Positions 1,404 to 14,397 of a stretch of DNA of 18,046 bases are shown piece by piece. The notes beneath the pieces are model-generated. The model did not search any database, was not told where the DNA came from, and saw nothing but the letters and a program-made list of their open reading frames with translations. Origin of the DNA: a virus (lineage: Duplodnaviria; Heunggongvirae; Uroviricota; Caudoviricetes); the IMG/VR virus record IMGVR_UViG_2802429220_000008, positions 1-18,046 of that record; one strand, written 5' to 3'. Numbering within the stretch: the first letter of the stretch is position 1; every line of letters begins with the position of its first letter. The translations under genes were made by a program, and so were the position numbers.

Positions 1404-1790
1404 TTAATGATTAATTGATATTTTGTTGTTTGATTCAACTTTCCCATCGGATGTGTGATGCTTTAAATCACAGGAATTAATACTGCTTGCTGTAAAATGA
1501 TTTTCAAGGGGAGCTATTCGAATCCCTTTCTTTTTCATTAACAAGCCAAATCCTTTATTAATGATGTCCATTAATTCCAGGAAGTATTTTTCATGTAAAT
1601 CCTGGTTATCAGAGAGCTGCTTCTCTTCGCACAGACCGATAAAGGCACGACGCACGTTACCGGATATAGTATCGATGGTTTCTTTTTCTACAGTACTCAG
1701 GTCAAGAGTCGCCAGTTGAGAGCGAACCACATTCGATGCCATTTCCTGGAATGGTACTGGTAAATCTTTAAATTCCATCGTCAACCTCAT
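1404..1790 (-). CDS. Hypothetical early-operon protein (possibly an intact YdfB/YdfC-like gene)
   Basis: 128-aa ORF with ATGA overlap to the upstream YdfA-like gene; position between ydfA-like and dicF-like elements as in the Qin dicB operon. Confidence 0.6.
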   Translation of the reverse strand: MRLTMEFKDLPVPFQEMASNVVRSQLATLDLSTVEKETIDTISGNVRRAFIGLCEEKQLSDNQDLHEKYFLELMDIINKGFGLLMKKKGIRIAPLENHFTASSINSCDLKHHTSDGKVESNNKISINH

Positions 1791-1942
1791 CAGTCAGTGT
1801 TTCTGGTTAACCAGCGACGCTCGCCAGCTTCAGTTTTAAACGTTTTGCTTCTGGTATACGTCATCGCGGTGAACGTACCGTCCTGGTTGGGGAACACACC
1901 ACATACCAGAGATTCGTTGTTGCCAAGATCGATAGTATCCAT
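1790..1942 (-). CDS. YdfA-like small protein (DUF1391-type)
   Basis: 50 aa MDTIDLGNNESLVCGVFPNQDGTFTAMTYTRSKTFKTEAGERRWLTRNTD; GAGG 5 nt upstream of internal ATG at 1942 (track ORF 1790..2020 starts further upstream without an RBS). Confidence 0.6.
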   Translation of the reverse strand: MDTIDLGNNESLVCGVFPNQDGTFTAMTYTRSKTFKTEAGERRWLTRNTD

Positions 1943-2118
1943 GCTGACCTCATTTCCCCTTAACGCCGGGGTAGCGGAACAAAAACCTGCTGCATAGTTA
2001 AAGTTGAACCCTGCCGTCATGTTCTTACGCCTCGGGCTGGCTACTTAACCCCTGACCACTGCCGGGTAACTCGAAGTATTTCCCTGCGTTCTGTGGGGCG
2101 TGGTGGGGTAGTGGAAAT

Positions 2119-2148
2119 AATCTACAATTAAAAACTGTTTTGTGTCAA
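2119..2148 (-). promoter_or_regulatory. Candidate leftward early promoter (PL-like) embedded in the operator palindrome
   Basis: On minus strand: -35 TTGACA (2148..2143), 18-bp spacer, -10 TAGATT (2124..2119); faces the ydfA-like/dicB operon. Confidence 0.4.
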
Positions 2149-2160
2149 CAGTTTTTAATT
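2126..2160. promoter_or_regulatory. Operator palindrome (OL-like): aattaaaaactgtt-ttgtgtc-aacagtttttaatt
   Basis: Perfect 14-bp inverted arms around a 7-bp centre; same half-site (AAAAACTGT-N9-ACAGTTTTT) as the palindrome at 3161-3195 on the other side of the repressor operon. Confidence 0.65.
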
Positions 2161-2171
2161 GTTGTATTGGG

Positions 2172-2197
2172 CAAAAAAACTCCCTCGAATGAGGGAG
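2172..2197 (-). terminator. Intrinsic terminator ending the repressor-antitoxin-toxin operon
   Basis: Stem ctccctc/gagggag with loop gaat; on the minus strand it is followed by a 7-8 nt U-tract; lies 18 bp past the toxin stop. Confidence 0.6.
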
Positions 2198-2214
2198 TGT
2201 GAAAATTGTTCAGT

Positions 2215-2502
2215 TCAGATAGGGAAGGGAAATTGTCGGCGGGCATGCACAATATTTGCAATTTCAATGCTTGAAGCTGCTACTCGGTACAAAACGATAT
2301 AATTAGGGTGAACCACAATTTCCCGCAAACCGGATACTCGATCACTTGGCGGATATAGATATGGATGCTCAGAGAGGGCTAAAACAGACGTTTCAATCCG
2401 TATTTTTAGTCTGCGTGCTGCAGGAATATTTTCCTTAGCAATATAGGCTACGATCTGACGCAAATCATCGCGAGCAGATGGTAGCCACAAAATGGGTAAC
2501 AT
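2215..2502 (-). CDS. parE: ParE/RelE-superfamily type II toxin (ParE-like)
   Basis: 95 aa with typical ParE features (LWLPSARDDL, GLREIVVHPNYIVLYRV, IANIVHARR); TAATG stop/start overlap with the upstream antitoxin gene. Confidence 0.85.
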   Translation of the reverse strand: MLPILWLPSARDDLRQIVAYIAKENIPAARRLKIRIETSVLALSEHPYLYPPSDRVSGLREIVVHPNYIVLYRVAASSIEIANIVHARRQFPFPI

Positions 2503-2693
2503 TACTCGCTCCTGTTAGTTACAGCAATTTGAGCAATAAGATTCTCCATTTCAGCCATTACCTCATCATGTGGAATTGAGGGACGAGGGTCAGCAAGGCT
2601 TGACGCCACTTTAGCGCGTAACCATTCGTTGTAACTGTTTTCTTGTTCGGTAGTTTCGAATTCTGAAACTATCGGAGAAAGGGCTGTACTCAT
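2502..2693 (-). CDS. Small antitoxin paired with ParE (PaaA-like, 63 aa)
   Basis: 63-aa acidic ORF immediately upstream of and overlapping the ParE toxin; size and context match PaaA-type antitoxins of the paaR-paaA-parE three-component modules (from memory). Confidence 0.75.
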   Translation of the reverse strand: MSTALSPIVSEFETTEQENSYNEWLRAKVASSLADPRPSIPHDEVMAEMENLIAQIAVTNRSE

Positions 2694-2720
2694 GGCATAA
2701 CTCCTCTTCTTGTACTGTGG

Positions 2721-3122
2721 TCACGCCCGGCGGCTTTTTTGTGCCGCCAACCACCGGGCAATGGTTTCTTCCATTGATTTTTTCTTGTCTTTGATTTCTT
2801 GAAGCATTTTTTCTTGGTCTTCCTCTGGAAACGCACTAAAAGCCTGGAGCAGTTCGCGTTGACGAGGACCAATTTTCATCGTGTCAGGGGTGAAAATTTG
2901 CTCCCCCTCTTCAGGAGGCAATAAAAACCAATGCAATGGATGCCCTGTAACCTCAACCAGTTTATCCAAACTTGAGGCTTTAGGTGTAGCCTTACCGCTG
3001 ACCCATTGTTGAACAGTTTGTTGTGTCACACCAATTCTACGGGCAAGCTCAGCCTGGCTCCATCCAGTTTCCTGAAGAAGCTTGCTGATTCTGTACATAG
3101 ATACTTCTAGGGCGTTCATCAT
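2721..3122 (-). CDS. Prophage repressor, HTH_XRE type without a LexA-like peptidase domain (DicA/PaaR-like)
   Basis: 133 aa; N-terminal HTH (ISKLLQETGWSQAELARRIGVTQQTVQQWVSG), C-terminal SPRQRELLQAFSAFPEEDQEKM similar in style to DicA; divergent from the cro-like gene; operators on both sides. Confidence 0.8.
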   Translation of the reverse strand: MMNALEVSMYRISKLLQETGWSQAELARRIGVTQQTVQQWVSGKATPKASSLDKLVEVTGHPLHWFLLPPEEGEQIFTPDTMKIGPRQRELLQAFSAFPEEDQEKMLQEIKDKKKSMEETIARWLAAQKSRRA

Positions 3123-3160
3123 TATTCAATTTTACAGGTAAATACTGTTAAAAGCATCAC

Positions 3161-3195
3161 AATAAAAAACTGTTGATTGTGTACAGTTTTTTATT
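3161..3195. promoter_or_regulatory. Operator palindrome (OR-like): aataaaaaactgt-tgattgtgt-acagttttttatt
   Basis: Perfect 13-bp inverted arms in the repressor/cro-like intergenic region; same half-site and spacing as 2126-2160; candidate -10 TATAGT at 3208-3213 just downstream. Confidence 0.65.
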
Positions 3196-3231
3196 GTAGG
3201 CTTTGCTTATAGTTTTTTAGAGGAGAGCAAA

Positions 3232-3504
3232 ATGCTAGATAGCACTCGCGAAAAAATTAGGCAGAAATACACTCAAGCTGAAATAGGTCGTTATATGGGG
3301 GTCGCTCAACAGACAGTTTGGCAATGGTTTAGCTTTGACGTTCCCCCAAAGCAGGTAATTCCGTTATGTCAGCTAATGAAGTGGGAAGTTACCCCGCATG
3401 AAATTCGCCCTGATATTTATCCTAACCCAACCGACGGTTTACCTGTTGGATTCAAGGTTAACACATCAAATGCACCGGAGTTGATTCATGAAAATCAAGC
3501 ATGA
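3232..3504 (+). CDS. Cro-like regulator, YdaS family
   Basis: 90 aa; HTH-like AEIGRYMGVAQQTVWQWF and the YdaS-type motif TPHEIRPDIYPNP; AGGAGAG RBS; divergent from repressor. Confidence 0.75.
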   Translation: MLDSTREKIRQKYTQAEIGRYMGVAQQTVWQWFSFDVPPKQVIPLCQLMKWEVTPHEIRPDIYPNPTDGLPVGFKVNTSNAPELIHENQA

Positions 3505-3913
3505 ACACATCCGCATGGCGATGAATGCCTGGGCGCGTCCTGATGGCGAAAAAGTTCCAGTAGCTGGAATAACCCAGGCTTATTTTGAGTTGGGTATGAC
3601 GTTTCCTGAACTGTATGACGACAGCCATCCGGAAGCCCTGTCTCGTAATACCCAGAAAATTTTCCGCTGGGTAGAAAAAGACACCCCTGATGCGGTTAAA
3701 AAAATTCAGGCGTTGTTACCGGCGATCGAAAAAGCAATGCCGCCTCCACTGGTGGCCCGAATGCGCAGCCACAGTTCGGAATATCACCGGGAGCTTGTCG
3801 AGCGACGGGAGCGCCTGGTGAAAGATATCGATGAGTTTGTTGCGGCAGCGATCGTGTTGTTCGATCAGATGAATCGTGGTGGTCCGGCGGGAAATGCCGT
3901 GGTGGCGCATTGA
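3488..3913 (+). CDS. YdaT-family protein (CII-like regulator / toxic when derepressed)
   Basis: 141 aa starting MKIKHEHI, which matches my memory of YdaT; follows the YdaS-like gene with a 17-nt overlap. Confidence 0.7.
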   Translation: MKIKHEHIRMAMNAWARPDGEKVPVAGITQAYFELGMTFPELYDDSHPEALSRNTQKIFRWVEKDTPDAVKKIQALLPAIEKAMPPPLVARMRSHSSEYHRELVERRERLVKDIDEFVAAAIVLFDQMNRGGPAGNAVVAH

Positions 3914-7786: not shown

Positions 7787-7849
7787 TGCTGCGGGTGCTT
7801 GAGGCTGTCTGCCTCGGGCATGCCACCGTAAGGCAGACAGAGAAAAGCC

Positions 7850-7915
7850 CCAGTTAACATTACGCGTCCTGCAAGACGCCTAACATTAATCTGAGGCCAA
7901 TTTCATGCTAGACAT
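7850..7915 (-). ncRNA. Predicted Sok-like antisense RNA region (boundaries uncertain)
   Basis: Inferred from hok-family organisation; candidate minus-strand promoter -35 TTGCCT (7948..7943), 17-bp spacer, -10 TAACCT (7925..7920) would give an RNA antisense to the mok start; no clean terminator found. Confidence 0.25.
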
Positions 7916-8117
7916 ATGTAGGTTAGCCTCTTACGCGCCGAAAGGCAAGGAGAAGCAGGCTATGAAGCAGCAAAAGGCGATGTTAATCGCCCTGATCGTC
8001 ATCTGTATCACCGTCATAGTGACGGCACTGGTAACGAGGAAAGACCTCTGCGAGGTACGAATCCGAACCGGCCAGACGGAGGTCGCTGTCTTCACAGCTT
8101 ACGAACCTGAGGAGTAA
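7905..8117 (+). CDS. Mok-like reading frame (in-frame leader encompassing hok)
   Basis: 70-aa ORF MLDICRLASYAPKGKEKQAMKQQK... with GAGG 8 nt upstream; same frame as hok, resembling the arrangement remembered for MokC/HokC. Confidence 0.5.
   Translation: MLDICRLASYAPKGKEKQAMKQQKAMLIALIVICITVIVTALVTRKDLCEVRIRTGQTEVAVFTAYEPEE
7962..8117 (+). CDS. hok: Hok/Gef-family type I toxin (HokD/RelF-like, 51 aa)
   Basis: MKQQKAMLIALIVICITVIVTALVTRKDLCEVRIRTGQTEVAVFTAYEPEE: single TM helix plus conserved TRKDLCE...REVA.F.AYE motif. Confidence 0.9.
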   Translation: MKQQKAMLIALIVICITVIVTALVTRKDLCEVRIRTGQTEVAVFTAYEPEE

Positions 8118-12331: not shown

Positions 12332-12407
12332 GGCCCTTTAGCTCAGTGGTGAGAGCGAGCGACTCATAATCGCCAGGTCGCTGGTTCAAATCCAGCAAGG
12401 GCCACCA
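12332..12407 (+). tRNA. tRNA with CAU anticodon (Met, or Ile2 if lysidine-modified)
   Basis: Manual fold: acceptor ggccctt/aagggcc, D-arm gctc..gagc, anticodon loop cuCAUaa, T-arm gctgg-ttcaaat-ccagc, 3' ACCA. Confidence 0.85.
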
Positions 12408-12487: not shown

Positions 12488-12564
12488 GCGTTGTTAGCTC
12501 AGCCGGACAGAGCAATTGCCTTCTAAGCAATCGGTCACTGGTTCGAATCCAGTACAACGCGCCA
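12488..12564 (+). tRNA. tRNA-Arg (anticodon UCU)
   Basis: Manual fold: acceptor gcgttgt/acaacgc, D-arm gctc..gagc, anticodon stem attgc/gcaat with loop cuUCUaa, T-arm cactg-gttcgaat-ccagt, GCCA end. Confidence 0.85.
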
Positions 12565-13922: not shown

Positions 13923-14156
13923 CCGGGTATCAGTCATGCCCTGAAAATTTTAAATGTCTCACAATTCAGACGGTTGACAGTTGTCTGGTTTGCGGGGAGT
14001 TTGTTAAAAGAAACTGGCATGGTGAATCCCCCTGAGCGGAGGGGCATATCAGCGCAGGTGTTTCTACTCTATCCTTTCTGTGCGGGTTCAGGTGCTGATA
14101 CTGAACTCACCGGGAGGCACCCGGCACCATGCAAGAAAAAGAATGTGCATGCAAAC

Positions 14157-14184
14157 ATGCCCCTCTCCGGAGGGGCATTTTTAT
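14157..14184 (+). terminator. Intrinsic terminator
   Basis: Perfect 9-bp stem atgcccctc/gaggggcat, loop tccg, then ttttat. Confidence 0.6.
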
Positions 14185-14397
14185 GGGTAAAAAATGCCCG
14201 AATGGGTTCGGGCAATAGCATGAGATACTGATATTGTTGTGTTGTTATCGTGTGGATTTTAACCAGGGTTTATCAGGCTGCGCAACTGCGTGGCCTTTTT
14301 TCATTTCTTGGGCTGTAGTCCCCGTGTGTCATTCAGGCTTCCGGACTACAGCCCACTCCATATCTGATTTAATACACTATCCCGGCCGGGAGGAATA

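Follow-up and report, generated by a model that had tools for sequence, protein, structure and literature searches.

Inverted repeats flanking the repressor operon of an Escherichia coli lambdoid prophage as probable OL and OR regions built from 15-bp operators

We analyzed a stretch of 18,046 nucleotides of Caudoviricetes DNA (IMG/VR record IMGVR_UViG_2802429220_000008; 'the window' hereafter denotes this whole stretch), which corresponds to a lambdoid prophage of Escherichia coli, and concentrated on two inverted repeats that flank the operon of its predicted repressor gene. These repeats are probably the left and right operator regions (OL and OR) of the prophage immunity switch, in an ordinary multi-operator layout; judging from the sequence, we put the probability of this reading at roughly 80%. 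As in other lambdoid switches, the repressor operon has the same motif on both sides, in two regions that each overlap an outward-directed early promoter (PL on the left, PR on the right), and several adjacent candidate operators lie about two helical turns apart, with OR spanning the divergent promoters PR and PRM (the latter the putative promoter of the repressor gene).

A first-pass annotation of the window had described the repeats as two perfect palindromes sharing the motif AAAAACTGT-N9-ACAGTTTTT. Two matching inverted repeats are indeed present, and their symmetry extends 2 nt further on each side than was reported: the left repeat occupies positions 2124-2162 (16-nt perfect arms around a 7-nt centre) and the right repeat positions 3159-3197 (15-nt perfect arms around a 9-nt centre). 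The word 'perfect' holds for the arms and is imprecise for the central 7-9 nt, which are asymmetric; in each repeat this asymmetric centre contains the -35 of a promoter directed outward, which reads TTGACA in the left repeat (minus strand) and TTGATT in the right one (plus strand). The shared motif has exactly two occurrences in the 18,046 bp (up to three mismatches allowed) against 0.01 expected, and none of 200 shuffled sequences reached two. The left repeat overlaps the leftward promoter that had been proposed there (TTGACA-N18-TAGATT, minus strand, 2148..2119); no other sigma-70 consensus match was obtained in the interval 1900-3600. The right repeat lies, as described, in the divergent region, within the 109 bp that separate the repressor gene from the cro-like gene ydaS. 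The earlier view of the repeats as matched operator regions that flank the immunity operon and overlap PL and PR agrees with ours.

We depart from that annotation over its 'single-palindrome arrangement', which it had set apart from the tripartite operators of lambda. Each arm is itself a 15-bp pseudo-palindrome of sequence ACAAT-N5-ACTGT (general form ACA(A/G)T-N5-A(C/T)TGT) and is best read as a separate operator. The pentamer centres within an arm are 10 bp apart, the half-site spacing expected for a helix-turn-helix (HTH) dimer, whereas the centres of the ACTGT and ACAGT pentamers of the annotated motif are 14 bp apart. A search with ACARTNNNNNAYTGT, allowing up to one mismatch, returned five sites in the whole window, all within OL or OR; four are the perfect arms, and the fifth, at 3134-3148, carries a single mismatch and stands alone, 25 bp from the nearest OR arm (OR2). 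Centre-to-centre spacings in the window are 25 and 24 bp at OR and 24 bp at OL. The predicted operators and promoters are as follows.

2119..2124, minus strand: PL -10 hexamer TAGATT, whose first T is the last base of OL1 (promoter scan; TAnnnT stands at the same position after the operator in seven loci).
2124..2138, unstranded: OL1, predicted 15-bp operator ACAATTAAAAACTGT, between the -35 and -10 of PL (motif match, conserved in loci).
2143..2148, minus strand: PL -35 hexamer TTGACA, in the OL2-OL1 spacer (promoter scan; TTGAC conserved in 7/7 loci).
2148..2162, unstranded: OL2, predicted 15-bp operator ACAGTTTTTAATTGT, just upstream of and abutting the PL -35 (motif match, conserved in loci).
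3129..3134, minus strand: putative PRM -10 TAAAAT, 6 nt upstream of the repressor ATG (-10/ATG geometry kept in related loci).
3134..3148, unstranded: OR3, predicted 15-bp operator ACAGGTAAATACTGT, over the PRM spacer and abutting the -10 (the only one-mismatch match outside the four perfect sites).
3159..3173, unstranded: OR2, predicted 15-bp operator ACAATAAAAAACTGT, just upstream of the PR -35 (motif match, conserved in loci).
3173..3178, plus strand: PR -35 hexamer TTGATT (read from the sequence; TTGAnn in the OR1-OR2 spacer of seven loci).
3183..3197, unstranded: OR1, predicted 15-bp operator ACAGTTTTTTATTGT, between the -35 and -10 of PR (motif match, conserved in loci).
3197..3202, plus strand: putative PR -10 TAGGCT, with the same geometry as at PL (inferred from the sequence; TAnnnT here in seven loci).

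A candidate fourth OR site at 3209-3223 was rejected, as it is conserved neither in E. coli haplotypes nor in other genera. The two 15-mers of each pair (2124-2162 and 3159-3197) are exact mirror images of one another, including their non-contacted A5/T5 centres; this symmetry of the E. coli arms, A-tracts included, exceeds what the consensus requires and is kept only partly in other genera. The five-nucleotide spacer between the PR -35 and OR1 (3178-3182) is hypervariable, with about ten variants and a pairwise diversity of 0.395 among 19 E. coli haplotypes, compared with 0.053 at third codon positions of the repressor gene and approximately 0 in the flanking 60 nt.

The comparison of related loci bears on the choice of recognition unit. 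Homologous loci were picked by repressor protein sequence alone, independently of the motif, and their DNA was then retrieved; a scan of genome contigs for the repressor locus returned one such locus, from Arsenophonus. The recognition helix [T/A]QQTVQQW is kept in six loci (Arsenophonus, Salmonella, Serratia, Klebsiella michiganensis, Pluralibacter and Morganella; 49-82% identity), and in these and the window, seven loci together, the starts of three 15-mers lie at about -75, -51 and -26 relative to the repressor ATG, with the OR3 equivalent at -26 or -27 (the Morganella copy is degenerate). Two further 15-mers, spaced 23-24 bp, flank a TTGAC -35, after which comes a TAnnnT -10; this OL pair is located 471-1605 bp downstream of the repressor start, past locus-specific cargo. 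Most of the 35 sites fit the loose consensus (Serratia OR1 and OR2, Arsenophonus OR2 and Morganella OR3 are degenerate), and the 70 half-sites begin with a near-invariant ACA (positions 1-3), followed by A or G at position 4 and T or G at position 5, with A/T in the centre; one Arsenophonus site is 1 nt out of register in this count, so that conservation is slightly understated.

Under the arrangement favored by the first-pass annotation, each 27-39-bp palindrome would be one operator, AAAAACTGT-N9-ACAGTTTTT, bound by a single dimer or a rigid tetramer, with one such operator per promoter. The perfect symmetry of the arms over 15-16 nt, A-tracts included and beyond the needs of a 15-mer consensus, speaks for it, and we nonetheless regard it as improbable. 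The 14-bp separation of ACTGT and ACAGT is unfit for an HTH dimer, while that of ACAAT and ACTGT (10 bp) is fit; the outer ACAAT, left out of the annotated half-site, is as conserved as the inner ACTGT, its ACA included. Inter-site spacing varies from 23 to 25 bp across loci (a gap between arms of 8, 9 or 10 nt) while the N5 within each site is invariant, and E. coli relatives that were selected on OR alone have intact OL 15-mers placed 25 bp apart, with an N10 gap. One Arsenophonus OL site, ACAATTATTTATTGT, has ACAAT as its inner half, which breaks the large palindrome and leaves the symmetry of each 15-mer intact, and the solitary third 15-mer at OR is itself conserved at a similar offset in related loci. 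Since the inter-site spacing varies while N5 is fixed, and since Arsenophonus breaks only the large palindrome, we take the 15-mer, not the long palindrome, to be the recognition unit.

The protein that would bind these sites is encoded by the following gene.

2721..3122, minus strand: repressor gene, whose product (133 amino acids) has a 434-like HTH_3 domain at the N terminus, then a linker, and a PaaR2/DicA-like helical domain at the C terminus (Pfam, alignments, AlphaFold2 model).

Its HTH domain aligns with that of the 434 repressor (phmmer, E = 2e-5; structures 2R63 and 1PER), GVTQQTVQQW in our protein corresponding to GTTQQSIEQL in 434, such that Q34, Q35 and Q39 align with Gln28, Gln29 and Gln33, the residues through which the 434 repressor contacts its operator. 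In its five-helix XRE/434 domain, the recognition helix opens with Gln-Gln and carries a Gln at the Gln33 equivalent. The AlphaFold2 model contains an N-terminal five-helix domain (block-mean predicted local distance difference test score, pLDDT, of 74-87) and a disordered linker (residues 66-84), and a fold search with this model returned XRE/434-type domains, including 2OR1 (root-mean-square deviation 1.3 Å over 60 columns). The similarity to PaaR2 (42% identity over 98 amino acids) resides mainly in the C-terminal half, and the N-terminal 35 residues do not align with PaaR2, for which we used the sequence from phage Evi, as a sequence search of the PDB gave no PaaR2 entry. Homology to DicA extends over the full length (28% identity over 111 amino acids, E = 2e-12). 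No S24 peptidase domain was found, Pfam returning only HTH families plus one sub-threshold unrelated match. In its length (within the range of about 120-140 amino acids), its HTH, its lack of S24 and its DicA/PaaR2-like C-terminal domain, the predicted protein is a short, non-cleavable repressor of the DicA/PaaR2/Gifsy type with a 434-like N-terminal HTH.

The assignment of the switch to the DicA/PaaR class, which the first-pass annotation had also made, is thus sound: the repressor is homologous to both proteins, and paaA/parE, ydaS and ydaT are all present. The step by which it had been reached, from a single palindrome to a DicA/PaaR-type switch, is faulty, because several operators per region have been published for both, PaaR2 reportedly having four inverted repeats at OR along with three operators at OL (PMC8630535), and dicA three operators on either side (PMC10448788). 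Short non-cleavable repressors such as DicA, RacR and GfoR/GtgR respond to antirepressors or switch stochastically (PMC10448788, PMC3121763), and the induction route of the present prophage may be of this kind; no antirepressor was identified in this analysis.

The occurrence of the motif follows the recognition helix of the repressor. The motif is absent from four homologues with other helices (QQSVQKW, QQTVQRW, QQTIQKW and QQSVQRW), of which the QQTVQRW locus (L009) has its own matched OR and downstream sites of the form ACAC[A/T]-N5-TGTGT and the QQTIQKW locus (L010) its own matched OR and downstream sites of an ACAAC type; a matched set is apparent, judged by eye only, in a third of these loci (L008). 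Conversely, the double-site pattern was found in 49 stretches among 2.9 million viral contigs, 41 of which adjoin this repressor, and one more is the OL of a contig that encodes it.

This co-occurrence bears on whether the sites serve mainly the Cro-like protein YdaS, or a host factor such as LexA, instead of the leftward HTH repressor. The recognition helix of YdaS (AQQTVWQW) resembles that of the repressor (TQQTVQQW), the first four helix residues being common to the two proteins, much as 434 cI and Cro share the start of theirs; the CTGT...ACAG portion of the repeats, moreover, superficially resembles an SOS box. We consider this explanation very unlikely, in that motif presence tracks the recognition helix of the repressor, and YdaS most likely shares the sites, given that the footprints of PaaR2 and YdaS overlap in prophage CP-933P (PMC8630535). 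A LexA-box reading was rejected: the gap is 9 nt (8-10 nt in relatives) and not 8, and the box CTGT-N8-ACAG has no match in the 18-kb window.

A purely structural role, as RNA hairpins or terminators, cruciforms, or recombination junctions for the exchange of immunity modules, is extremely unlikely. In its favor, the terminator scan picked out the left repeat, on the minus strand, as terminator-like, and homology with phage Evi, which is of the PaaR2 type, resumes just outside PL. The stem, however, is A/T-rich (3 GC pairs of 16) and located after a genuine GC-rich terminator, neither of the transcripts that would start at OR would contain the right repeat, and conservation follows the half-sites and not stem pairing, with site centres and inter-site spacers varying freely. 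An RNA-level role was likewise discarded, as the repeat region has no Rfam match and its pattern of conservation is unlike that of a stem.

Several observations weigh against reading the repeats as a multi-operator OL and OR, or limit what can be drawn from the comparisons. Because the E. coli and viral loci were found via the motif, the invariance of their operators, including the zero diversity of OR1, OR2, OL1 and OL2 among the viral contigs, is in part a product of that selection; diversity within the motif-found E. coli set is not usable as evidence of operator constraint, and only its unconstrained positions and the OL of OR-selected loci are informative. Distances between OL and OR span 547 to 1657 bp, give no indication of helical phasing and differ by single base pairs among the E. 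coli relatives. Judged by consensus, PR (TTGATT/TAGGCT) is a weak promoter that fell below the promoter-scan threshold, and PRM has a poor -35. The strict pattern is matched by OR3 with one mismatch, and the loose consensus by the Morganella OR3 with two. Operators of 434 are 1 bp shorter than the 15-bp site, the contact geometry of which may therefore differ, and the C-terminal helical hairpin of the repressor was modelled with low confidence (pLDDT 44-64).

The repressor mRNA appears to be leaderless, starting at 3122 (the A of the ATG), as suggested by the -10-N6-ATG arrangement. Six enterobacterial loci preserve the pattern T[AG][AG]AAT-N6-ATG, the Arsenophonus version being TATAAT-N7-ATG; a leaderless paaR2 mRNA has been shown experimentally (PMC8630535). 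Phage Evi, which carries PaaR2, has the same -10-N6-ATG geometry. The centre of OR2 lies 44 bp upstream of the predicted PRM start, and lambda OR2 sits at about -42 relative to its PRM; this similarity of position makes self-activation at low repressor levels, together with autorepression through OR3, plausible. Low-level activation of its own promoter has been reported for PaaR2 (PMC8630535).

On the multi-operator layout, the switch might work as follows. Each 15-bp site is probably bound by one repressor dimer through the 434-like HTH. Occupancy of OL1 and OL2 should shut off the leftward ydfA-ydfB-ydfC...dicB early operon, and occupancy of OR1 and OR2, which flank the PR -35, should shut off ydaS (cro), ydaT (cII) and the replication genes. 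Repressor on OR2 could activate its own gene, and OR3, which covers PRM, would confer autorepression at high repressor levels. The Cro-like YdaS, a presumed competitor because of its near-identical recognition helix, would contend for the same sites and so give a bistable switch, while YdaT probably binds a box at 3481-3498 and would drive establishment transcription. The C-terminal domain common to PaaR2 and DicA probably provides cooperativity between adjacent dimers and possibly looping between OL and OR; this looping is conjectural, since OL-OR distances vary.

The remaining features of the region are as follows.

1790..2020, minus strand: DUF1391/ydfA-like gene, first of the PL operon (Pfam DUF1391; RefSeq annotation of a 99.9% identical locus; same order in Qin).
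2179..2198, minus strand: intrinsic terminator at the end of the repressor-paaA-parE transcript, just before OL (terminator scan: 8-bp stem with 5 GC pairs, then T7).
2215..2502, minus strand: parE-family toxin gene (95 amino acids), cargo of the immunity region (Pfam ParE_toxin, E = 6.6e-16; ParE2 structure 5CW7, E = 1e-37).
2502..2693, minus strand: paaA-family antitoxin gene (63 amino acids; Pfam PaaA2, E = 1e-21; PaaA2 structure 3ZBE, E = 1.5e-22).
3232..3504, plus strand: ydaS, cro-like gene (90 amino acids; Pfam YdaS_toxin).
3481..3498, unstranded: candidate YdaT (CII-like) box TTGATTCATGAAAATCAA, at the end of ydaS and the ydaS-ydaT junction (perfect match to TTGATT-N6-AATCAA).
3488..3913, plus strand: ydaT, cII-like gene (141 amino acids; YdaT structure 8BT1, E = 1.9e-81).

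In CP-933P a high-affinity OM site with the same sequence pattern and position as this box was footprinted at the end of ydaS (PMC9986795). Further to the left of the DUF1391/ydfA-like gene lie ydfB, ydfC and dicB, and to the right of the repressor gene ydaS and ydaT are followed by replication genes. The regulator, the PaaA-family antitoxin and the ParE-family toxin stand in one operon, in the PaaR-PaaA-ParE gene order, and the paaA and parE products are diverged copies, yet clear matches to PaaA2 and ParE2. The 1.7-kb region around the repeats is 98.5-99.9% identical across many RefSeq chromosomes, and of 5,426 complete E. coli genomes, 509 carry it at a query coverage of no less than 80%. 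A megablast search with the immunity region against 50,697 phage records gave zero matches, and a tblastn search of the same number of sequenced phage isolates found only repressors of less than 60% identity and none above 60%.

Between the repressor gene and OL, the window and loci L004-L011 have a cargo hotspot that parallels rexAB in lambda. Its contents are PaaA/ParE in the window and in both L008 and L011, a HigB-like toxin with an HTH protein in L009, in L010 a protein with a P63C domain, and unknown open reading frames elsewhere. In the metagenomic locus L011 (2170-3022), an open reading frame of 123 amino acids at the position of a PaaR2-type repressor, beside a PaaR2-type ydaS, is overlapped by the gene that comes directly after it, which encodes a repressor of the present family, and the two may be tandem repressor genes.

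Elsewhere in the window, a hok/sok type I toxin-antitoxin locus at 7793-8117, downstream of the replication genes (Rfam sok; Pfam HOK_GEF), is a second toxin-antitoxin system of the same prophage. The small RNA STnc100 (13988-14188, plus strand) and the anti-GcvB small RNA AgvB (14189-14250, minus strand) lie between two tRNA genes (12332-12404 and 12488-12561) and a gene for a NanS-like esterase (14398-16248). In Shiga toxin (Stx) phages the region downstream of Q holds the stx genes; no stx gene was seen in the STnc100/AgvB region of the window. A Qin-like ydfABC-dicF-dicB order would predict the small RNA DicF, for which no Rfam match reached the gathering threshold between ydfC and the dicB end of the window (positions 1-1400); the RefSeq annotation of a 99.9% identical genome has a truncated hypothetical gene there.

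This immunity specificity is seemingly undescribed within the DicA/PaaR2 repressor class; our literature search found no paper describing it. The analysis reveals no new kind of switch. What it offers is a testable operator map, of five sites and three promoters, for an immunity type found in E. coli, Salmonella, Klebsiella, Serratia and other genera. As the predicted operators would control the ParE toxin-antitoxin pair and the dicB cell-division-inhibitor operon, the map also predicts when these are switched on, and the repressor family provides natural helix/half-site pairs with which to study the evolution of repressor specificity and heteroimmunity. More tentatively, the family might constitute a natural series of immunity specificities on one scaffold, in which a PaaR2/DicA-type oligomerisation domain is joined to 434-like helices that read 15-bp operators and in which helix changes at the Gln33 equivalent (Q to K or R) are matched by half-site positions 4-5; ACA[A/G]T with QQTVQQW, as against ACAC[A/T] with QQTVQRW, may be an example of such a pairing. 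The same doubtful proposal would attribute the exact 39-bp mirror symmetry of both OL and OR in E. coli to a dyad-symmetric tetramer, or to a PaaR2-like octamer bridging OL and OR.

Among the systems available for comparison, phage 434 has similar operators; their reference sequence, ACAAT-N4-ATTGT, is contacted at its outer 5+5 bases, and A/T-rich centres are favored (PMC1636474; PMC3317979). The two systems share the half-site ACAA(T/G), the A/T-rich, uncontacted centre, the QQ...Q residues of the helix, a recognition-helix start common to repressor and Cro, and a tripartite OR over divergent PR and PRM promoters. They differ in operator length: the 14-bp form ACAA-N6-TTGT (N4 between pentamers) was not found, every site in the window and the related loci being 15 bp (N5). 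Two OL sites are present here and three (OL1-3) in 434, and the RecA-cleavable C-terminal domain of the 434 protein is absent, a short helical domain of the PaaR2/DicA type standing in its place.

The GfoR and GtgR repressors of Gifsy-1 and Gifsy-2 (PMC3121763) are similar in size (about 135 amino acids), are about 33% identical to our protein, have no self-cleavage motif and belong to the same DicA/RacR family. They have a different specificity, and Gifsy is induced by LexA-controlled antirepressors, whereas the window is without a LexA box.

In the Qin prophage of E. coli K-12, the leftward operon downstream of dicA has the same order, ydfA(DUF1391)-ydfB-ydfC...dicB. Our own reading of the Qin sequence (L062, 3360-3440) indicates two TTAGC/TTAGT-type repeats flanking a TTGACC -35 directly downstream of dicA and before ydfA; two sites around a -35 is also the layout of OL in the window. 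DicA is non-cleavable, is relieved by the antirepressor Rem and displays bistable behavior (PMC10448788). Qin differs in its TTAG-type operator repeats, in having no toxin-antitoxin cargo between repressor and PL, and in encoding DicC in place of a YdaS-type Cro, with no ydaT annotated in the Qin stretch examined.

The locus is laid out like the immunity region of CP-933P of E. coli O157:H7 (PMC8630535, PMC9986795), which shares the order PL, parE-paaA-repressor, PRM/PR, ydaS, ydaT and a replication-initiator (O-like) gene, as well as a homologous repressor C-terminal domain, an identical YdaT box and a YdaT protein, the CP-933P structure of which is matched by ours with E = 1.9e-81. Repression of PL and PR by PaaR2 has been published, and the protein is an octamer in solution according to earlier work cited there (PMC8630535). 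The supplementary tables of PMC8630535 contain no operator sequences. YdaS is only 21% identical between the two prophages, and PaaA and ParE have diverged. The repressor of the window has another DNA-binding domain at its N terminus, and its operators are consequently unrelated to the GTTTAGT-type operators of CP-933P and phage Evi, which were not found here. To the left, similarity to Evi returns immediately past the PL -10, and to the right it is again strong from ydaT, so that the operators and the DNA-binding domain travel together as one immunity cassette.

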